Part shown: positions 31,199 to 43,217 of the stretch, in pieces
Layout: the number at the start of each line of letters is the position of its first letter
Numbering within the stretch: position 1 is the first letter of the stretch
Source: Giardia intestinalis
Taxonomy: Eukaryota
Length of the DNA stretch: 64,000 nucleotides
Reading direction: 5' to 3' (one strand)
Assembly: GCA_000002435.2 (NCBI GenBank)
Contig: CM018792.1
Notes under the pieces: generated by a model
Seen by the model: only the letters and a program-made list of their open reading frames with translations
Databases searched by the model: none
Told to the model about the DNA's origin: nothing
Position numbers and translations under genes: made by a program

Positions 31199-31651
31199 AT
31201 GGCCAGGAGGGTCTTCTTTGCTATCGAGGGCGTTGTGAGCCTTGGGGGCGCCCACGTGCTCACCCAGGTGGACACTGGTGCTGTCACAAGCTCTCTGAAT
31301 GCTCGGAACGTGTTTGTCGCCAGGAAGAGCACGGGATCCATGCCTCTATGCGTCAGCTTTACAATGATATCCCGCTTCGATGGCAAGGAAAGGGAATACG
31401 AATTCTTCGATGTCCCAGGTCGGTACTATAAGCAAAATGAGGTTATAGTTGTAATTCCTGCGGTGCTGTGTGATCTGACACCGGTCCCCTACGAAATCCA
31501 ACTATACACTAAACTTCGGGACCGCGCTTCTTCTGTGTATGATCTCAGCATAGGACTAGATGTGTTTAGCCAATTACAAACCCAGTATAAGGTCAGGCCT
31601 TTTCTTCAAGTCACCAATTCAACTGGTCAGATTAACGTCTCAGGGCATTAA
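31199..31651 (+). CDS. Hypothetical 150-aa protein with a retropepsin-like (A2/DDI1-type aspartic protease) signature
   Basis: AHVLTQVDTGAVTSSL near the N-terminus matches the retropepsin active-site pattern (hydrophobic-hydrophobic-DTGA-hydroxy). A later IGLDVFSQL stretch resembles the ILG.DFL flap-proximal motif. The size fits a single retropepsin domain. The ATG sits 1 nt after the cathepsin B AGTAAAT signal. Confidence 0.4.
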   Translation: MARRVFFAIEGVVSLGGAHVLTQVDTGAVTSSLNARNVFVARKSTGSMPLCVSFTMISRFDGKEREYEFFDVPGRYYKQNEVIVVIPAVLCDLTPVPYEIQLYTKLRDRASSVYDLSIGLDVFSQLQTQYKVRPFLQVTNSTGQINVSGH

Positions 31652-32182
31652 AAGCACTATATAGACCTTCCGTATAGATATATGGGGTCACAACTATTAA
31701 AGAGTGGCAATTTCCTTTACTACAAATCTGAAGGGAGCTTCAAACAGCACAAAACTGTCTATTTTCCTTTGATTCCCTACGGAATCTGTATGTCCATCCC
31801 ATTCGGAATATAGTGCCACGGATAGTAGCCCGATGCTCTAGATAGGTAGCTACAAAGCTCGATGAGCGTCTCTGATGTAGCTTAACGGAGGCTGTTGCAA
31901 TCATTGAGCCTCCTCCAGAGCAGCATCCCATTAAAGCATATCAAGACCTCCATAGTGCATGATAACCATGCGTTATAGATGCTCAAGCCACGCTGTACAA
32001 ATCATGATCTTTTCGATTTAGAACACTACAAAACGAAATATCTTTGGTTACAAGACAGATTGGTATTATCTTTTTATCAACATAAATATGTTTCTGGAAC
32101 ATTCATGTAGCGCTGCACTGACCTCTTTGTGTATCCGTGAAGGCTTCAGACCTTGGTAGGCGTGGCATTAGCAAACGACTCA

Positions 32183-33731
32183 ATGGTTGAGCATTAATGT
32201 CTTTATACTTCTGGTTGGCCTTGCGCTCCATCTGGCGACAGAGGAGTGCACACCCGTCTCTGGTGATCAGCCCGACGCTTGCAAGGCCTGTAGCGCCGTC
32301 ATCAACGGCAAGAAGTACTGCTCGCAGTGCAACAGCGGTGGGTCTCAATCTGCCCCGACGGACGGAGTGTGCTTACCAGACAACGCTGTGTGTAATGCAA
32401 AAGCAGAAGGAAAGTGCACCATGTGCACGGGAAGCTCCTTCATGTACAAGGGCGGATGCTATGTAACAACCAAGGCGCCTGGCAATGCAGCGTGTACACA
32501 AGCAGCTGCTGGAGTGTGCACACAAGCCGCGCAAGGATACTTCCTGCCACCCGATGCTGATAGAGATAATGCACACCAATCGGTTATACCATGTGGAGAT
32601 GTTGAAGAAGTGTTGGCTGGAAACAGCCACAAGTACAAGGGCGTGCCGCACTGCACTCGGTGTGACACGCCTGACGCAGCAACCGATGCTAACGCCAAGG
32701 CTGCCACGTGCACGGCATGTGAGGACGGGTACTTTGTAGATAGCAGTAAAGGGTGCACTGCCTGTGATAGTAGTTGTAAAACGTGTGAGGCCACAGGAGA
32801 TACTAAGTGCAAGTCGTGTAAGGATGGCTACTTCCTGGCCGCAGCAGATAATAATCCAGGCAAGTGCATATCATGTGGAGATGTTCAAGGCTCAAGTGGC
32901 TGGAAGGGGGTCGCTGGATGCGCCAAGTGCAACAAACCAGCTAATGCAAACACCCCTGCCACATGCACTGAGTGCCAGGAAGATAAGTATCTGAAGACAG
33001 GTGAGACATCCAGCTGTGTCAGTGTAGAGGAGTGTAAGGATGGATTCTTCCCCACGACTGATAAACAAGGCAAGAAGGTGTGTGCTAAGTGCAGCGATAC
33101 TGCCAATGGTGGCATAGAGGGCTATGCAAAGTGCTCTCTCAAGGCAGCGTCTGCAAGAGCAGGTCCAATAGTTACGTGCTCTGAGTGCACCACAAACAAC
33201 CTGAGCCCCCTGAAGGACGCGTGTCTAACAGTCTGCCCTGCCGGGATGCATGCCAACAGCAAGGTGTGCACCCCCTGCCACGAGTCGTGCGCCGGCTGCC
33301 AGACCGATGACAAGGAGACTTCCTGTACGGCCTGCTACCCCGGATTTATACTCGTACGTGCTGGGGCTACCGATAAGGGCACGTGCGTTAAGGAGTGTAC
33401 AGGAGCAGCTGGAGCTGGTTGTGAAAGCAACATGTGCAATGCCAAGATAGCAGGGTCCAATTACTGCTCCAAGTGCATTACGGGGCAGGCACCCATCAAC
33501 GGTATTTGTACATCCGTAACAAGGTCCGCGAGAGATGCAGTCGGTTGTGCTCCGAGTAATGGAAAATGCACAGCGTGTACAGGAGACTATTTCCTCCAGT
33601 TTGGTGGATGCTATGAAAAGACGCAGTTCCCGGGAAAGATGGTATGTGCAGATGTAGACTCACAAAGAAAGTGTAATAGTTGCTTAAAGTTTGTGATGTA
33701 CATTTTGACGTTGTTGCGGAGCTGGAAGTAG
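32183..33731 (+). pseudogene. VSP pseudogene: start codon followed by a 1-nt insertion, and a 3' truncation that removes the TM/CRGKA tail
   Basis: ATGgTTGAGCATTAATGTC gives M-V-E-H-stop. Deleting the single g restores MLSINVFILLVGLALHLA, a textbook VSP signal peptide, in frame with 514 aa of CXXC-rich VSP body (FMYKGGCY, KTC, GGCYEKTQFPGK). The body ends abruptly (..CNSCLKFVMYILTLLRSWK*) about 170 aa short of where paralogues place the TM helix and CRGKA, and runs into unrelated AT-richer sequence. Confidence 0.75.
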
Positions 33732-34173
33732 ACTGAGAAGATCGATTTGAGGAGATTGAGGCAGGATCCTTCTACACGACTAACATCTGTCTGCAAAATA
33801 TTAACAATAAGAATGTCGGCAATGGCAGATGCGAAAGCGCCTATACAGCGTTCAATATTCTGATCATTTTCTGTGGCACGCTCTTTGCTCTCGGACCCCT
33901 TACAATAGAGTAGTAGTATGGTCGGATAGGATCCTGCACCTGGGATGAGTCCCGCTGTAAGCCCCTTGGTCGTCTTTTGTCGGTCGTCATCTTCATCCAA
34001 CGCCTTGAGGCATGTTCCAAAGAGGTCGTTGAAGAGGGTTGACCTGCTATATGACTGGTCAAGAATAACGACACACGCATAATGAAGGGAGTCAGAGCTG
34101 GGATGCTCCGCGCAAGAGCCATATACTTCTTGCTACATGCGCCCTCGTCTGTAACAAAAGGAGCCTCTATTCT

Positions 34174-35257
34174 TCAATGAATAGGGTCGATACCACTGTC
34201 TTCCTCAGTAAGGTGTTCTTCAGCAGCTTCAACATTTGTACCACCGAAAAGATATACAAGTGGGGGCTTAGACATGTTCGTGGACGTAGAGGAAGTTAAA
34301 GAAACCGTAACATTTGTCGGAGTGGAGCGTTCTGCAAGATGTTCGGATTCCTTATGTTGATCCTCCGCTTTAATTGCAGGGCTATTGAGTGTTTGGAAAA
34401 AGCCAATGATCTTTCTGGTCGTGGGCTGCTCTGCCGGGTCCAGGATGAATATCTTCTCGATGACAGTTCTTACGAATTCATCTGTGATGGCGCCCAAATC
34501 AGGCCTCCACTCATTGTCAAAGACTGCTTTCGCATCCTCTGGCTCCCAAAGTGTGAAAAGCTCGGCAAGCTCATACATGACGACTCCAGAGGCTCAGATA
34601 TCCGAAGCGGTGCTCGTCTCGTATGAAGGTCTCGGGGGCCATGTATGCCGACGTTCCTGCAAAGGTGCCTCCACTATGCAGAGAGTCCTTGCAGGGCCCA
34701 AAGTCTGCGAGCACGATGCGCTAGCCGTCCCTATTCATCAGAGTTGGCGGGCCCGAGGTCCCCGTAGACGAGGCTGTAAGATAAGCTCCCGTCTTCGGCC
34801 GCCTTGCGAGGGTTGTGGGGGTAGGCGAGGGCGTCAGCCATCTGCTCTAGGAGAGGGAACATCAGCCCCTTGGGACTGGGTTTACGAGCTGCCCTGTAGG
34901 CAGTGATAAATTTCTGGAGATCCCTGTGGTGGCGGTCCATGATGACGAAGATGGGTCGTTGCTCCTGATCACCTGGTGATACTTGATGACGCTAGGCTGG
35001 GAGAGTCTTGTGACAGTTTTCAGTTCGCACTCTGTGAGCTTCTTCTCACTACGCTTGATCATCCTCTCCTCCACAGAAAGGCCTGGACACCCATCGATGG
35101 CGCGAACGGCACCGAAGGCCCCTTTGCCTAGCAGCTCGCCTTCGCGCTGATACAGCTCTTCGGGACTGAACATGGGGATGCTATCGGGGCCACTGCCAGC
35201 GCTCTCTGCAGCACGAGTGGGACTCTCACTGACCATGTCATGCGCAATTAGATTCAC
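34174..35257 (-). pseudogene. Protein kinase (NEK-like) pseudogene broken by at least two frameshifts
   Basis: Three consecutive minus-strand ORF pieces in different frames carry, in order: kinase subdomains I-IV (LGKGAFGAV...VIKYHQV) at 34862..35257; subdomains V-VIb (IFVIMD..HRDLQ...ALAYPHN...YGDLG) at 34731..34940; and subdomains IX-XI (MYELAELFTLWEPEDAKAVFDNEWRPDLG...FILDPAEQPT) at 34174..34578. No single frame is open across the whole domain. Confidence 0.65.
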
Positions 35258-37682
35258 GCTTTCTATTACGCCAAACTAACAATTACTGTACTGGGGCCAA
35301 TTTTCGCAGAATCTGTGGATAGATAGCAATCACGGATTCGGTGAGCCTCAGCCTTGCTACCTCCTGGTCGAACGCTTTTCCTGTGCCAGAGAGGGCCCCC
35401 ACCGCCCGAACAGACTAACCCCGATACCGAAGTGGAGCACGTCTAGGCCCGACGGTGGAGAACCCTGGACCCGTTCATCAACAGCAGCCGCCGCAGCCGG
35501 GTCACCTGCCCCTCAGGTATCCCCCCGCAAACGCAGCTCGCCGCCCGGGGCACGACTGTCCGTGGCGGCGGCCAGCCCTTCATCAAGGGGGCGCGGTACT
35601 CAACCATGAGACGGCGCAGACCATGACCTGCAGATGCCGACAGGCATCCGGTGCCCTGTGGCCTGCCATGGAGGAGGGTGCAGGTACCACGAGTCTGCGC
35701 CTTTTGCTAGTGGCCGCCGATGCCCCTCTGCCGGACTATGTTGGCACCTTCGCTGACTCGTGCTGCGTTAGACTCCGGATGCATGTACCGTGGGCTGACT
35801 ACCAAACGCGATCGCAGCCCACATGGAATAGACAAGGCCTGCCTTGCTGACAAGAGTGAACTTCCTCTTCTCGGGGGAGGAGTCCACCGCACGCCTGAGC
35901 AAGAACGTGCATGGCCACCCAGCTTCTTTTGTAGATCAAGCCCAGCGATGGGCGGGACTTGTCGCCGCCGGTCGGTGACGCCACCTCTTCTGTCCGCTTT
36001 CTGGGATGCCACTGGGGCTCAGAGGCAGCGGGCATGCGGGAGGGTCGCCCAACGCACGCTCCCTAGGCCGTGTTGCGGAGGCCGGTCATCACGTATGGAA
36101 GGGGTTCGCAACAGGGCGCCGACGTGGGCAACGCCATGGATACCGCTCTATCCATTTTCAGTAAGCGGCTTTATCCCAGCATATAGTATTCTATGGTCTA
36201 ATTGTCCCATAACAAACCATACAAAAGCAGACCTTGCACAACCATAATCACCCTTAGAATGCATCAGAGTCAACAGGATAGATTCCAAGGGCCCAGAAAT
36301 TCAGTACTCTTGGTGCCTCGTTGTAAAGGGATTGCCAAAAGTATCCACACCACTTAGCCCTTAGTCCTCACAGAGCACTGACGTGGAAATGCAGTGTGGC
36401 TTACCTTTATGGGCTGATCTCCGTTTTCTGGCTTATAGATTAGTAGGCCCAACTTTGTCGATATCCTTAATAACCTTCCTGAAACTCCTTTCTGGATCAC
36501 CACTCTTATGGTAGAATCACGCGTCTGTATGAGCTTTGTGCATCCAGGTCATTCGTGTCATCGGGTCCGAAGACAGGGCCGATAACACGCGCGGCCTGAA
36601 TCCACTTATCATTGACAAAGGATGTATGCCCAGGTGTGAAACCGTGCCACAGCTTTGCATCTGGTGGAAAAGGCAAGACAGCTTTCTCTCATATTGCATA
36701 GGCTCAACTCTCTAACATAGATAAGCACGCTTCAATGTCGTAGTGAGAATAAAAAGGGCCAGCTAGAGGCTCATGATTGCATTGGCCACGACACACACAG
36801 TTGCTATTCCCCAATAGGCATCAGATTTATTCTATTTCACTGAACCTGGGTTGCTAGCCTTTGTCTGAGTAAATCTCCTATGGAAACGCCACCGCACTGG
36901 GTGATCCTCATCCGAATATAGGGCGTTCCGGAGATTCTTGCACAGGCCTTCAGCGAGATCCTCAGCGCGATCCATAGGATGGGATGCGTGCTCTGTACGG
37001 TTCCGCCTGGCCCTTCCCCAAGGGCGAGGCAGGACAACCACGATCAGCAGACGATCATGATTTGCTCCACAAGACAGTTCCAAGGAGCTGCGTCGGGGCC
37101 TTCCTCCGGCTGGGACGCGCTGCACCCTTGGACTCGGTCCCTCGGGGCCCTGAGCATGCTTCTGTGCTGCGCGGGACAGAACCTGCTCGCCAGGAGCTGA
37201 GGAGAGACCCCGCTCATTGCCCATGTCGACGACGCACTTAGCTTCCATAGTAGCAACAGTGACGCGACGGGGCAGTCACAGAGGCGACAGGCCTGGTGAA
37301 GCAACATGGCTCGACGGTCAACACTGGGTGTAGGAGTACGGAGGGACAGGAGGCCTCTCTCCTGGCCGGTCTCAAGGAGCCCCCAGGGCAACCGAGGGCC
37401 GAAGCTAGTGATGGCACTAATCACTCGCCGTGCTGGTTGAGACGGACCCACACGTGACCTATGTGAATCCCTCGACAAGAAATAGGAGTTGGGGTGCTTG
37501 GCTGGCAGAGGCGGACTGATCCTGCCCGCACCGGAGAGTGGTGGCGGCTCACATGAGAGATCACTCAGGTAGTAGGTGACCTCACCCCGGTGACACGGAG
37601 AGTAAATTAGTATCCTAGCCAGATTAAGTATTTTCATTGTAACAATCTTAGTTTGAAAATAATTATAGATTGTACTTCGCAT

Positions 37683-40600
37683 TTACATTGTTAGGATCGC
37701 AGAAATATCCTCATCACTTAGAGCGCCTAGGAGATGTCGCCTATCGGATTCGTCTAATATTAACCCGCTTGTCGGTTCGTGGTATATGCGATTGGGGGCA
37801 GTGTCTTCTAAATTAGGATACTTTTCATATTGCTTGATCATGTAGTCTATGTTTCGTAGCTCGCTATTAACAGCGCGTTCTATAGAGCCTGGAAGCCGCG
37901 GAGAGATTGGTTCGCGGCTAGCTAGCATCGGGCCGGGATCAACTGGGGTTCTACTGAGAGTAAACGACCCCGCAGAATTGGATCGAGGTAACGGCCGGTC
38001 TTTTGCTGGGATGCGGTACTCTGAACCACTGGGCGTGTAGGGTGCACGCGCAGACTGTGGCCGCAGTGGCTGTGTTTGGAGGTCTACTCGTGGAGAAGGC
38101 TGTAGCGCAGGATGAGAGTGATATGCCTCGTGCTGCTTCTGTTGTTGTTGGATGGTTTGCTTGGCAGCTCGTAATTCTGAAACCAGCGTTCTGATCCTGC
38201 CTTTGGCCACAGTCAGCTCTTTGTTGAGGGCCTCCACTTCTTCGGCCTTAGCAAGTACAGCAGGGCTCTTTGTAGACGGCGTACTTCGTCGAGCATCGAG
38301 ATCCTTCTTGAGTCGGACTACGTCTGCATGTAGAGACTTGTTTTTCGCCTGCATCTTTTCGTTTGCCGCGACAACCCCTTCAAGGTTTTTCTGGAGCTCT
38401 GCGAGCTTCTTGTCCTTTTTGGCCAGCGAGTTAGCGTGTTCAGCCTTCAACATTGCTTGAATGTTGGACAGTGCACCTTCGTGAGAGCGCTCTCGCTCCT
38501 GCATATCGGCTATTTGCTGCATAAATCCTTGCACTTTAGCATTTTCGTCGCGTAAAAGCCGTTCTAGCATATTACACTTATCAACTTTCATCTGTATGCT
38601 TTCCATCGCAGACTCTAGCTTTGCCCTCACTTGCAGCAGTTCGCAATCTGCTTCCCTAGCTTTTATTTTCATTTCTTCCTTGAGTTCTTCCACTTCTATC
38701 TGAGCTGCAGTCAGCATATCTTGCATGTTTTTACAGTCTTGGCACTCAAACCGAGGGGTTTGGGTTCCGACCCCAGTAGCCATGGTTGTGATACTATCAG
38801 TATACAGGGACAATGCAACATCTGGAGGCATTGACGTGTTGACCTTGCTATTTAGTGCAGAGAGATTGTGCATCCTATTGGCCAAGTCTTCATATTCAAT
38901 TCGCGAGACAATATCCATGTGAGATAGTTCTGATTGGGAAGACTTGTAGGAGGTATGAACAATCATAGTCTGCACTGATACAGTTACCGTTTTATCAAAG
39001 GTGTCGCTCCTTCTTAGCGATGTAGGCGACCGCACGAAGTGGAGCATTGCAGGAGTTGTAATAGAGGAATCCATAGGGGCGTCTAAATTGACCAGACTAA
39101 CCTGACATCCAATGGAGCTGGCAGTGCGATCAGATTGACTTCCAGAGAACTCGGAGATCTGCTTCTTAGCAGACAACAGTTCTTCCTGGAGAAGCCTTAT
39201 CTTGTTCCGCATAAGATTCTGAACAGATGACGCGCTCATCGGTCCATTTGCAGTTTCTAACAGATCAAGAAATGATAAGCTAAGTTTCTCATCGCCAGTT
39301 GAATCAGAATACATCTGAAGGCTGCTAGACGGTCTTTCACCTAGATTATCCCCAACTTGATGCTGTTCGGCTTTGGTAGGCATGGAAGCTGAGAAAAGCT
39401 TTTCTCTCAGATCCTCATTCTCCTGCTGGAGTTGCAGTACTTTTTCACGTAATATAGTAAAGCGATCGGACATGCGACTAAATTTAGAGAAGACGCGTCC
39501 AAGAGTGTCTCCAAGCCGTACCTTACATGCCTCAGTAGCACCTTCCGGCTCTACACGAACGCCTGATAAAAGCAAGTCCTGTACATCAAATTGCCTCTCA
39601 GGACTTGATAGTTTAGCACTGGCACCTCTACCATGTTCAGTGGGTGTTGTATGAAGAGATTGGAGCCTATGGTACTGAATACACTTCTCAATGTCCACCG
39701 CATAGCTCTCAATAATTGCTTTACAACCTTGCGCAGACCCTGTGTAAGCATTATAAAGTTTCTGGAGCCGAACACGCAGACCAGCCATGTCTGTACATTC
39801 ATTGTGTAAGCTAGTGTTTTCAGCTTGCAAAGCCAGGACCTGGTCCATAAGCTCTTGCTTTTCGTCCTTTAATGTCTTAATTGAGGCAACTAACGCATCA
39901 TACTCAGCTCCTTGTAAAATGTCACACTGAACTGAAGCAGAAAAAGTTTCCTTTTTCGTAGAATATAACTGTAATTCCTTTTCTAGCTTTGTAGTTGTCT
40001 CTTTTGCTTCAATGAGCTGTTGACGAAGACTCTCTTCCGTAGCCTTGAAGGAACGTAGTGCCTGAGTATATAATGATCGAATGTTCGAAAGATTGGATCG
40101 GATTTTGTCCTTCTTGCAGCAGATAAAGCGAATTGCACCCAACTTAAGACTTAAGCGAGTAACCTCACGATAAATTCTATCAGCTAGCTCAGTATTAAGC
40201 TGCTCTAAGGTTGAGATCCTCCTCTCGCATGCGCTTACAATGCGCTTGCTAGATGAAAGAATGAGCATTCCATTCTCTTGGGTCCCCAACATGGAAACAT
40301 CCTCGTGCAGTGTGTGATGGAAAAACGAAGTACCAGCATTAGTGGTTGCTTGTGTAGAAGGAACTGTTAGCCTAGAAAAATCTCCTGTCATATTGTCTGT
40401 CAATGGAGGTAAGGTGATAATCTCTCCTAGTCCTTCGCAAAGGGAAGAGATTCGAGACTTCATCCCTTGAAGCCTTAATTTAAGAGCTTTTAGTTCAACT
40501 TTCTTATCATCTGCTGATAGATTATTGAATGCTTTGGATTCCGCAAAACATGCCTGAAGCTCAGCTTGGAGGCCCTCACTGGGGCGAATAATGACGCCAC

Positions 40601-43217
40601 CTTCGGCTCGGCCTTTCTGCCACGCTGACTGCTGGGTTAGAGACTTTCTTGCATGCTCGACAGCGGAAAGCTTTGTCGGGACAAAGTTGGGGCCGCTATT
40701 CTGGCCTGCCTGCTGCGGTGGGACCTCATCATATATGATACCTGCAGCAGCTAGTCTAGAACTATACTCTGTGGGCGTTTCACTTTCTAGGATGAGAGCT
40801 AGGCTGTTGCAAATACGATAAGATGCCTCTCCCTCCAGCAGTGCTTCTGCACATCGCTTTATACTTAGAAATGCCAGTTGTAGGCCTGCAGAGTCATGCT
40901 GGGAGCTGCTTCTAACCGAGATAGAGGATGTCTGGGTAGTCGACGATGCTTGCTTGCTAGTTTGAAGGATAGCCTTGGTCAGTAACAGATCGTTTTCCTC
41001 ATTAAATAGCCGCAAGGACTCTTCCATCTCTTTGCATCGAAGACCATGCCCCTGTAGTAGCAAGGAGGAATACATGGATGCTAAGCTCTCTGCAACCATG
41101 CATCTAGCATATAGAGCCTCTACTGAGTCCTCTTTGTCTAGCGATGACAAGTCTTGCAAACTGATCCTGGCTTGGAGATTCACCTGGCGCTGCAGAAGCT
41201 CATTTTCAGCTGTCAACTCATCAATCCGTTCAGCAAACATAATGATCCTGTTTCGCGCAGCAGTAAGATCGTTAATCAATAGAGAAAGTTCATGACTAGA
41301 TGACCAGCTGTCCTTCACACCTTGGTAAGGGAGACGGCCCTTAGAATAAAATTGCTCCAACACATTGTAGCATATACTGCGATAGCGGACTGCTGTATCA
41401 TAGAAGAATTCTGTTGTCTTTTTGGAATCAACCATGCTATTAAGTATCTTCAGTAGGTGTCCTCCGTGTCCGCTAGATAGCGGCGGATTGAGGATGGAGC
41501 TGATATGGGTGTTCATGCGGGATACTATCGCGCTATGCGTTGACAGGGTAGATGCATCAGAGGAGCCCTCAGCGGAAGTTTGGGACTTATTAACTGATGT
41601 AATAAGCTTTTGTTTCCCACGCGTATCTTTGTTATCCTTCACTAGCTTGTACATGCTATCCTGCTCAGTGATAATAGCATGAATATCTGCACACAATCGC
41701 GAATTCAAACGCTCAAGACGGTGGATCTCTGCCTCTAGCTCGTGTTGTCTCATCATCGCCTGATTGCATCTTATTTCCCAAAGACTATCGGGTATAGACA
41801 CTGGCAACAATGAAACAAGTGATTTAATTGCATTTCTATTGATATGTATCTCATTCTTTTCGTTATTTTTTAAGTCTGGTTGTTCTGTGTTGTCAACAGG
41901 TTTGTAATTTTGTGTTGTCAGCGCTCTCATTAGCTCTAGATCCTGCTCCCATAACCCGTCTCTATATGATTGTAATACAAGTGTTTCAACAACATTGCTA
42001 TTAAACAAGTCCGATTTTAGAATTTCATCTTGAACTGTGTTAACAATGCCCAGCCCCAGCTTTATCTTATAGATTTCTCGTATCTTGATGAGGAGGGCTC
42101 TCTTAAGCTCCATAATAAGATCTTTGTCATCCTCATTGCTCACTTGAAGGATCTTGTGGATTTTCAAGTTGTACTCAGTCTGAGTAGTCGCGTGGACAGG
42201 CTTTCTATGGATTGTCTCCTTAGTTATGTCATTGGATGATTCTGAGTCGGATTCTATATACTCATATTCAAGATCTGTAGCTGAAGCTGAGCCACCGTTA
42301 TCACTGGTAGACGTTCCAGAGTCTCCTAAGGAGACCTTCGATACCCGACGTCGGCGCTTCTTGAGTTCTTGTTGTCTTCTTTCAATGACACCGTTTTCTC
42401 CCTCTTCTATTACCTCTATGCGGGTCGAAAATCGAATAGACTTTTCCAGTGGAACATCGGGGCCCAGAGAGACAGAATTTGTAGCAACACGCTTATATAT
42501 CTCCAGATCCTCGGTTTGCTTGTCGCGGAGAGACTTCTCACCCATGTCTATGATGATGTTATGGAGCTCCTGTATCTTCGTGTCCTTTTCAACAAGCAGT
42601 GCTTCCATATTTGCCCGCTCTCTGATGCACGCATCTACTTTTGCTGACAGCGCTATTGCTTTCTCATTGATTTCATGCATGAGTTGAAGGTCCTTTTTCT
42701 GCTCAGCGACTTGCGCCTGGCTGGTTGCTATAACTCGATCTCTATCTGTGATTATTTCTTGAAGTCGACTAATTTCTTCATCCCGCTCTAGTAAGCATCT
42801 TTCTAACTTATCATAATTCTCTTGAAAGGCCTCATCCATTGTGGCGCTTTGAGTTTCCATAGTTTGCTTTAATAGGAGTAATTCTGTAGTTTTCGCCTCA
42901 TTCTGACTACGTAGATGCCGTAATTCCGTCTCCATTCTGCTTAGTTTAGCTTCGAGCGCATTCTGTGTTCGCTCTAACAGAAGCTCCTTTTCCGTTTGAT
43001 CCTTAAGCGCTGCCTCCATGGTTCCAAGGATGTGCTTGTGCTGTCGAACCTCTTGAACGTGTACTTCGCCCAAACTAATTAGTTGAACGCAGGCTTCTGG
43101 TAAGTCTCCTCGCTTCATCAGATCAATGCATTCACGATACTCCTCAGGAAGCTTCCTTACTCTTTGGGCCAAAATGACGGGATCAATCTGCTCCCCTGCA
43201 CTCCCTTCCCCTGCCAT
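37683..43217 (-). CDS. Very large coiled-coil protein (1844 aa), a probable cytoskeletal or basal-body structural protein
   Basis: A single 5.5 kb ORF dominated by heptad-like E/K/L/Q-rich segments along most of its length. No enzymatic motif recognised. Confidence 0.7.
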   Translation of the reverse strand: MAGEGSAGEQIDPVILAQRVRKLPEEYRECIDLMKRGDLPEACVQLISLGEVHVQEVRQHKHILGTMEAALKDQTEKELLLERTQNALEAKLSRMETELRHLRSQNEAKTTELLLLKQTMETQSATMDEAFQENYDKLERCLLERDEEISRLQEIITDRDRVIATSQAQVAEQKKDLQLMHEINEKAIALSAKVDACIRERANMEALLVEKDTKIQELHNIIIDMGEKSLRDKQTEDLEIYKRVATNSVSLGPDVPLEKSIRFSTRIEVIEEGENGVIERRQQELKKRRRRVSKVSLGDSGTSTSDNGGSASATDLEYEYIESDSESSNDITKETIHRKPVHATTQTEYNLKIHKILQVSNEDDKDLIMELKRALLIKIREIYKIKLGLGIVNTVQDEILKSDLFNSNVVETLVLQSYRDGLWEQDLELMRALTTQNYKPVDNTEQPDLKNNEKNEIHINRNAIKSLVSLLPVSIPDSLWEIRCNQAMMRQHELEAEIHRLERLNSRLCADIHAIITEQDSMYKLVKDNKDTRGKQKLITSVNKSQTSAEGSSDASTLSTHSAIVSRMNTHISSILNPPLSSGHGGHLLKILNSMVDSKKTTEFFYDTAVRYRSICYNVLEQFYSKGRLPYQGVKDSWSSSHELSLLINDLTAARNRIIMFAERIDELTAENELLQRQVNLQARISLQDLSSLDKEDSVEALYARCMVAESLASMYSSLLLQGHGLRCKEMEESLRLFNEENDLLLTKAILQTSKQASSTTQTSSISVRSSSQHDSAGLQLAFLSIKRCAEALLEGEASYRICNSLALILESETPTEYSSRLAAAGIIYDEVPPQQAGQNSGPNFVPTKLSAVEHARKSLTQQSAWQKGRAEGGVIIRPSEGLQAELQACFAESKAFNNLSADDKKVELKALKLRLQGMKSRISSLCEGLGEIITLPPLTDNMTGDFSRLTVPSTQATTNAGTSFFHHTLHEDVSMLGTQENGMLILSSSKRIVSACERRISTLEQLNTELADRIYREVTRLSLKLGAIRFICCKKDKIRSNLSNIRSLYTQALRSFKATEESLRQQLIEAKETTTKLEKELQLYSTKKETFSASVQCDILQGAEYDALVASIKTLKDEKQELMDQVLALQAENTSLHNECTDMAGLRVRLQKLYNAYTGSAQGCKAIIESYAVDIEKCIQYHRLQSLHTTPTEHGRGASAKLSSPERQFDVQDLLLSGVRVEPEGATEACKVRLGDTLGRVFSKFSRMSDRFTILREKVLQLQQENEDLREKLFSASMPTKAEQHQVGDNLGERPSSSLQMYSDSTGDEKLSLSFLDLLETANGPMSASSVQNLMRNKIRLLQEELLSAKKQISEFSGSQSDRTASSIGCQVSLVNLDAPMDSSITTPAMLHFVRSPTSLRRSDTFDKTVTVSVQTMIVHTSYKSSQSELSHMDIVSRIEYEDLANRMHNLSALNSKVNTSMPPDVALSLYTDSITTMATGVGTQTPRFECQDCKNMQDMLTAAQIEVEELKEEMKIKAREADCELLQVRAKLESAMESIQMKVDKCNMLERLLRDENAKVQGFMQQIADMQERERSHEGALSNIQAMLKAEHANSLAKKDKKLAELQKNLEGVVAANEKMQAKNKSLHADVVRLKKDLDARRSTPSTKSPAVLAKAEEVEALNKELTVAKGRIRTLVSELRAAKQTIQQQQKQHEAYHSHPALQPSPRVDLQTQPLRPQSARAPYTPSGSEYRIPAKDRPLPRSNSAGSFTLSRTPVDPGPMLASREPISPRLPGSIERAVNSELRNIDYMIKQYEKYPNLEDTAPNRIYHEPTSGLILDESDRRHLLGALSDEDISAILTM

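Follow-up and report, generated by a model that had tools for sequence, protein, structure and literature searches.

Pseudogenes of variant-specific surface proteins (VSPs) account for a few percent of the Giardia intestinalis WB genome and have been catalogued. Two forms of them matter here, both among the sub-types of VSP pseudogenes (pVSPs) in bioRxiv 10.1101/2022.03.07.483299: those whose signal peptide lies in another frame, and those whose C-terminus is truncated and lacks the transmembrane domain (TMD) and CT. The initiator of the family is well defined, as 135 of 136 WB VSPs carry the Kozak-like motif PyAATGTT according to the same source. Adam et al. 2010 reported vsp pseudogenes of WB that have an internal location and no ATG, and no SAGE tags were recorded for the WB pseudogenes listed in the paper on isolate P15 (PMC3091692), a list in which the present locus may not figure. 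Recombination among vsp genes is documented, and VSP switching in Giardia is ascribed to epigenetic or post-transcriptional mechanisms and not to recombination (PMC2996952).

The window analyzed here, a stretch of 64,000 nucleotides, contains a VSP-like open reading frame (ORF 32187-33731) for which an inactivated state had been proposed in a preliminary description. Five proteins flanking this ORF match Giardia intestinalis WB (assemblage AI) exactly (KAE8304502-18). To its left lie a cathepsin B gene, which clusters with CP3 at 90% identity or more, and then the gene for the 150-aa hypothetical protein GL50803_007620; to its right is that for the 1844-aa GL50803_00112787. The two hypothetical proteins bear consecutive accession numbers (KAE8304516 and KAE8304517), so the 6 kb between them hold no CDS in the current WB annotation. 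In the annotation of 2007, a "VSP" fragment of 99 aa was listed there (XP_001704584.1), which corresponds to the last 99 codons of the ORF. Separately, the gene for GL50803_007620 (31199-31651, plus strand, 150 aa) has a pN/pS of ~1.1 between WB and isolate DH (7 non-synonymous and 2 synonymous changes), and its ORF is conserved across at least four Giardia lineages.

We conclude that ORF 32187-33731 is very probably a non-functional relic, specific to assemblage A, of a normal VSP that was damaged twice before the AI/AII split. Its coding body is the following.

32187-33683, plus strand: Cys-rich, VSP-homologous body of 499 open codons, with 19 CXXC and 2 GGCY motifs

The frame runs over 514 codons, from a TTG at 32187 to a stop at 33731; another stop in the same frame precedes it by 5 codons, and the first Met that it encodes is at codon 79 (32421). 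The Pfam VSP family PF03302 matches the ORF with an E value of 3.7e-51 over profile positions 1-244 of 397, and 11.3% of its residues are Cys. A protein database search returned 219 VSP matches, the best 120 of which are all PF03302 proteins. The Cys-rich ectodomain with CXXC and GGCY motifs that a functional VSP requires is thus present. An in-frame, ATG-initiated signal peptide is not, as the ATGs at 32183 and 32197 are both out of frame, and the ORF encodes no C-terminal transmembrane domain followed by CRGKA. The Met start and predicted signal peptide of a secreted Cys-rich protein (SCRP) are likewise missing, the sequence from codon 79 (MCTGSSFMYKGG...) not being hydrophobic. Within 200 nt past 33731, no poly(A) signal of the basic form AGT[AG]AA (as distinct from the extended VSP-specific form) was found. 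Lacking an in-frame ATG upstream of codon 79, a transmembrane domain, CRGKA and an intact initiator, the ORF is therefore a VSP pseudogene, and the proposal that it lacks a usable start and a membrane anchor holds for what is otherwise a real VSP body. It falls into the pVSP class because it is most similar to VSPs and lacks the obligatory start, TMD and CT, of which the lack of any one would have sufficed. This class is already described, and the locus is an ordinary member of it.

The best database match of the ORF is a 515-aa protein of isolate DH (assemblage AII), ESU37381.1 (GCA_000498715.1; L001 10001-11548), which is annotated "Variant-specific surface protein" and whose initial Met is a TTG. 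Being the same pseudogene read from a TTG, this entry is an annotation artefact, and it is propagating into UniRef. The same 515-codon gene model is called in every assemblage A copy examined: the WB ORF, DH, and the copies L010 and L011 from the ENA assemblies ERZ19219916 and ERZ27317378. The bases of the start region were aligned in three assemblies (WB, DH and L010), while L011 contributes the gene call only. Three features in this region bear on how the start was lost.

32183-32185, plus strand: first ATG, the start assumed in the preliminary description; out of frame with the VSP body, it opens a reading frame of 4 codons (MVEH, then a stop)

32186, plus strand: the "extra g", shared without change by WB, by DH and by the ENA assembly L010

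32197-32199, plus strand: second ATG, in the context TAATGTc, the positional orthologue of the intact VSP start of assemblage E

Positions 32180-32199 read tcaATGgTTGagcattaATG, and the start region as found at the locus is tcaATGgTTGagcattaATGtctttatac. Neither ATG stands in a PyAATGTT motif, the two contexts being CAATGGT and TAATGTC, and no exact YAATGTT occurs across 29689-38449. From the second ATG, which is shifted by +1 relative to the frame of the body, a junk ORF of 89 codons (32197-32466) can be read. Since the two upstream AUGs yield only MVEH and an 89-aa junk peptide, no VSP protein would be made by normal Giardia initiation, and the locus is probably not expressed as a VSP.

What the start looked like before it was damaged can be judged from assemblage E. 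In P15 (assemblage E), the syntenic VSP (P0040; contig ACVC01000163) directly follows the cathepsin B and 150-aa genes; it is intact, encodes 583 aa, and has the initiator CAATGTT, the N-terminus MFYTLLWIGLVLQLVRA, a TMD and CRGKA. A second assemblage E sample likewise has an intact syntenic VSP with the same start as P15. The expectation that other isolates might hold an intact full-length VSP at this position is thus borne out for assemblage E, and fails for the other assemblage A isolates compared, none of which has one. At the DNA level, WB and P15 are 69.5% identical over the upstream region and the first ~550 nt, beyond which the bodies cannot be aligned. In these alignments, the start codon of both E samples pairs with the WB ATG at 32197, and assemblage E has CTA where WB has the ATG at 32183. 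Between ATG 32197 and the mature N-terminus, WB differs from E by +1 and -5 nt, so that the VSP body is shifted by a net 4 nt relative to this ATG. Deleting c32201 in silico gives ATG TTT TAT ACT (MFYT), and the signal peptides of this type among the best 120 VSP matches all begin MFY(T/A). The ancestral start was therefore probably the second ATG and not the one at 32183, the ancestral signal-peptide coding sequence being deduced from P15 loci and from protein N-termini. A 14-nt tandem duplication was also considered as the source of both ATG contexts and was rejected (6/14 matches by eye).

An alternative, and the one favored by the preliminary description, is that the gene began at ATG 32183 (MLSINVF...) until a single g, inserted recently, inactivated it. 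The repair that this implies is formally valid: deletion of g32186 in silico yields MLSINVFILLVGLALHLATEEC, a plausible signal peptide in frame with the 514-aa body, and only this deletion turns the context CAATGgT into the perfect VSP initiator CAATGTT. The g is, however, fixed in the AI and AII assemblies and in L010, so the lesion is not recent; with start bases identical in WB, DH and L010, and the same call in L011, it predates the AI/AII split and is no read error. The N-terminus MLSIN is, moreover, absent from the relatives among the best 120 VSP matches, none of which starts in this way, the "MSINVF" of the DH protein being the same TTG annotated as Met. Together with the CTA in assemblage E and the alignment of the E start to 32197, these observations make the single-g reading unlikely: a 1-nt insertion after the first ATG is probably both the wrong event and the wrong ATG. 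An initiator at 32197 that was lost through several small indels remains our preferred account of the 5' lesion.

The second lesion lies at the 3' end, where four features meet.

33684-33712, no strand assigned: junction interval of 29 nt and ambiguous origin, between ..KCNSC (VSP) and ..FQLRN (GTPase, minus strand)

33684-33731, plus strand: non-VSP tail of the ORF, 15 codons (LKFVMYILTLLRSWK, then a stop), which spans the junction and continues into the antisense strand of the GTPase fragment

33713-34120, minus strand: fragment of an RHD3/Sey1-type GTPase, the N-terminal half of the G domain, recognized by Pfam, PDB and P0164 similarity

34381-35236, minus strand (34381 approximate): remnant of a NEK-type kinase domain, its start ATG at 35236 kept

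When four full-length VSPs were used in tblastn, VSP homology ended at 33683 for three of them and at 33701 for P0004. The corresponding end residues are 498/635 (the closest WB paralogue), 522/650, 448/583 and 539/672, that is, 128-137 residues short of the CRGKA ends; therefore, ~135 aa are missing. The membrane anchor is indeed absent, as had been noted, with no CRGK encoded downstream or nearby on the plus strand, and the loss is smaller than the ~170 aa first estimated. Nor did tblastn with full-length VSPs reveal a hidden VSP C-terminus in any frame of 31-38 kb. The 3' end had been described as a recombination or deletion breakpoint that continues into unrelated sequence. The breakpoint is real, as VSP homology stops and the antisense of another gene follows, while the sequence beyond it can be identified: it corresponds to the opposite strand of an RHD3/Sey1-type GTPase segment in a convergent kinase-GTPase-ankyrin pseudogene. 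Since VSP homology ends at 33683 and GTPase homology at 33713, the two convergent genes meet tail-to-tail within 29 nt. The tail LKFVMYILTLLRSWK is identical in the DH protein (P0001), and the same junction and tail are found in DH, L010 and L011, which rules out a mis-assembly.

The partner gene on the minus strand is itself in decay. Its minus-strand ORF 33614-34132 overlaps the VSP tail and matches Pfam PF05879 with an E value of 1.8e-21 over profile positions 4-130 of 245; the fragment also matches the Sey1p structure 5ca8 in the PDB (E = 2e-13) and is 66-67% identical to residues 382-519 of P0164. This is not a complete G domain, and its P-loop is degenerate: in place of GxxxxGKS/T it reads LDQSYSRST, against GPQSSGKST in Giardia relatives. 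The kinase remnant, which was missed by tblastn with two NEK kinases of the window (E<1e-3) and surfaced through stop-to-stop ORFs and a database search, contains at least two frameshifts and at least three in-frame stops. It is orthologous to the P15 NEK protein P0157, and the tblastn alignment of the two needs two frames and crosses at least three stop codons. No uninterrupted kinase-domain frame is left, an out-of-frame stretch replacing HRDLKPAN. The adjacent kinase pseudogene of the preliminary description, and the decaying block that it was said to form with the VSP, are confirmed by these frameshifts and stops. P0164 is a 2044-aa protein from an ENA metagenome scaffold (L014 194-6328) that combines a kinase, an RHD3 GTPase, a coiled coil and ankyrin repeats. 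The WB kinase and GTPase pieces are collinear with its residues 1-518 and are therefore one pseudogene (35236 to 33713, minus strand), which is cut after ...SIFSVYFQLRN at 33713. We found nothing relevant in a literature search for Giardia RHD3/Sey1, nor a description of the kinase-RHD3 GTPase-ankyrin combination in Giardia. Proteins of 945 aa with an RHD3-type G domain occur in multiple copies in G. muris.

In P15, contig ACVC01000074 (L004 10001-11674) encodes a 326-aa NEK followed by a 190-aa ankyrin ORF, and these match residues 1-295 and ~1190-2035 of P0164, respectively. P15 therefore has an internal-deletion derivative of this gene, annotated as two genes. At first taken for the "intact" form of the neighbor, the 326-aa NEK is itself a deletion derivative of the kinase-GTPase-ankyrin gene. 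The P15 deletion, in which the kinase is directly followed by the ankyrin repeats, is, on the sequences compared, an event independent of the one in WB.

These observations suggest the following history. The ancestor would have been a normal VSP at the same chromosomal position, as in assemblage E, which began with an MFYT... signal peptide and ended in a transmembrane domain and CRGKA. In assemblage A, before AI and AII separated, small indels in the early codons (net -4 nt relative to E) would have put the body out of frame and broken the initiator/Kozak motif. Also before this separation, a deletion or rearrangement would have removed the last ~135 VSP codons and the poly(A) region, and fused the VSP, tail-to-tail, with the convergent kinase-RHD3 GTPase-ankyrin gene at codon ~520 of the latter, killing both. 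The simplest history would be one deletion or rearrangement that took both 3' ends. The order and exact nature of these events are inferred, as is the single tail-to-tail event, since the P15 contig ACVC01000163 stops 411 bp past its VSP; other genes lie beyond the P15 kinase remnant.

Against a pseudogene speak the 514-codon frame, which is open in all assemblage A copies seen, and a pN/pS below 1 (see below). We attribute the persistence of this open interior to the little time elapsed and to gene conversion from live paralogues, which would still be overwriting it. The affected tract is delimited as follows.

32304-32945, plus strand: mosaic interior, in which WB and DH are 62-98% identical per 60-nt block and whose flanks differ by 1-3%

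Across ~32300-33150, divergence between the WB and DH alleles rises to as much as 35%; the edges of this region are sharp, it encloses one island of identity, and all of its indels are multiples of three. The most divergent blocks of the mosaic are ~62-67% identical. A paralogous VSP at another locus, recovered from a different sample (L013), shares 92-100% identity with the DH allele in most 60-nt blocks of 32304-32945 (83-88% at 32652-32768) and 58-90% with WB; in one block, WB is nearer to the E orthologue. The pseudogene of the DH lineage was therefore overwritten by gene conversion. Two AII-like alleles (L010 4989-6536 and L001 10001-11548) are 98-100% identical outside one 60-nt block, equivalent to WB 32592-32651, in which they share 72% identity; this block is best read as a very recent small conversion patch.

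Such exchange raises the question of whether the open cassette is retained because segmental gene conversion diversifies expressed VSPs and draws on it as a reservoir, be it as donor or as acceptor, by analogy with trypanosome VSG pseudogenes. The ~650-bp tract, in which the DH allele so closely resembles a VSP from elsewhere while WB and DH fall to 62% identity, the further patch that differs between the two AII-like alleles, and the vsp recombination documented in PMC2996952 would all fit this reading. What they attest is exchange, and selective retention goes beyond it. The block in which WB is nearer to E points to the pseudogene as acceptor and not donor, and by our estimate a long open frame is not improbable at ~2% divergence per lineage with conversion refreshing the middle. 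We therefore regard retention as a reservoir as distinctly improbable; if true, it would add a recombinational layer to Giardia antigen diversification.

The open frame could also be taken to encode a functional, anchorless, secreted Cys-rich protein similar to SCRPs, made from a non-AUG start such as the TTG at 32187, as the DH annotation implies. Giardia does have secreted Cys-rich proteins without a TMD (bioRxiv 10.1101/2022.03.07.483299), the 515-codon model recurs in WB, DH, L010 and L011, and pN/pS between WB and DH at the unconverted VSP ends is below 1 (0.43-0.50), a value that is based on few changes (27 and 8) and to which imported paralogue sequence may have contributed. These same ends, however, differ by 5.0-5.7% at the nucleotide level, against 0.4-2.0% for the functional neighbors and ~3-5% for the kinase pseudogene and the non-coding stretch, which places them at a neutral level of divergence. 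The DH copy has lost a CXXC cysteine (KVCTPC to KVYTPC). Two out-of-frame AUGs, neither with an intact initiator motif, precede the frame, its C-terminal 15 residues are antisense junk of another gene, and its stop is not followed by an AGTRAA poly(A) signal within 200 nt. The ORF has also been dropped from the current WB annotation, and under the decision tree of bioRxiv 10.1101/2022.03.07.483299, an ORF without a signal peptide from any Met is a pseudogene. A secreted product is hence highly unlikely. That the frameshift is false or the join at 33684-33712 chimeric, as sequencing or assembly errors, can be given practically no weight: homopolymer-type errors are frequent in old 454 assemblies (PMC3091692), but the same model and junction partner recur in four assemblies that were produced independently and by different technologies (the chromosome-scale one of WB, DH, ERZ19219916 and ERZ27317378).

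The doubly damaged VSP relic lies, with the kinase-GTPase pseudogene, in a 6-kb block that includes one further feature.

35237-37682, no strand assigned: GC-rich stretch (52-56% GC), the "ORF desert" of the preliminary description, ~96% conserved with DH

No coding homology, Pfam or Rfam match, or P15 counterpart was found for these 2.4 kb; an Rfam scan of 31-38 kb (E≤0.1) was also without a match, and a tandem repeat search detected only a trivial 12-mer in two copies. In a Logan contig (SRR25011044; L007 120-2740), the orthologues of WB 31199-31651 and 37683-43217 are just 170 bp apart: the 150-aa gene adjoins the 3' end of the 1844-aa gene, with no VSP, kinase or GTPase between them. This contig, whose proteins are ~80% identical to those of WB, is probably from assemblage B. 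A more distant contig has an ankyrin protein where WB has the 6-kb VSP/kinase-GTPase block. In WB, the block therefore constitutes a variable island of lineage-specific occurrence, a reading that fits the reported association of synteny breaks with VSPs, NEK kinases, Protein 21.1 and "GTP-binding proteins" (PMC3091692). Elsewhere in the window (54800-63900, minus strand), there are tandem VSP-like ORFs, several with a terminal CRGKA, that start with GTG or with a repeated non-signal sequence (MLYSDSDSAMWCGGDSDSMRLLFMGGCY, three copies) and have no YAATGTT initiator nearby; they are probably VSP pseudogenes or partial duplications.

On its own, the locus matters little, as both of its lesion types have already been described. 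It does yield three by-products. One is an annotation correction, ESU37381.1 of DH being the same pseudogene with a TTG start. Another is a dated and well-delimited case of decay in a Giardia variable island, whose VSP is intact in E and doubly damaged and fixed in A, and which is missing altogether from a contig of probable B. The third is a clean gene conversion into a pseudogene, which bears on how the VSP repertoire diversifies.

Among known systems, the silent, defective members of the Trypanosoma brucei VSG pseudogene archive resemble the locus in exchanging internal segments with paralogues; that archive feeds mosaic VSGs, whereas here the segments were not seen reaching an expressed gene. 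P15 P0040 shares its chromosomal position, with homologous upstream sequence and first ~550 nt, and differs in its intact initiator, TMD and CRGKA. The locus shares with the pseudogenes of Adam et al. 2010 an internal position in a large contig and the lack of an in-frame ATG, and in neither case is there a hint of mis-assembly; unlike it, the three pseudogenes in that report keep the CRGKA 3' end and span 224-902 bp, against a 1.5-kb body with its 3' end lost. The closest match is with the pVSPs of bioRxiv 10.1101/2022.03.07.483299, although the protein sequence of the ORF was not found in the text supplementary files of that work. As in pVSPs, a VSP-homologous, Cys-rich ORF lacks a Met-initiated in-frame signal peptide, a TMD and CRGKA, and a signal-peptide-like start can be recovered at the locus by a change of frame. 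Unlike any single pVSP sub-type, the locus combines both types of lesion, and its 3' truncation has a partner that could be identified, a convergent kinase-GTPase-ankyrin pseudogene.
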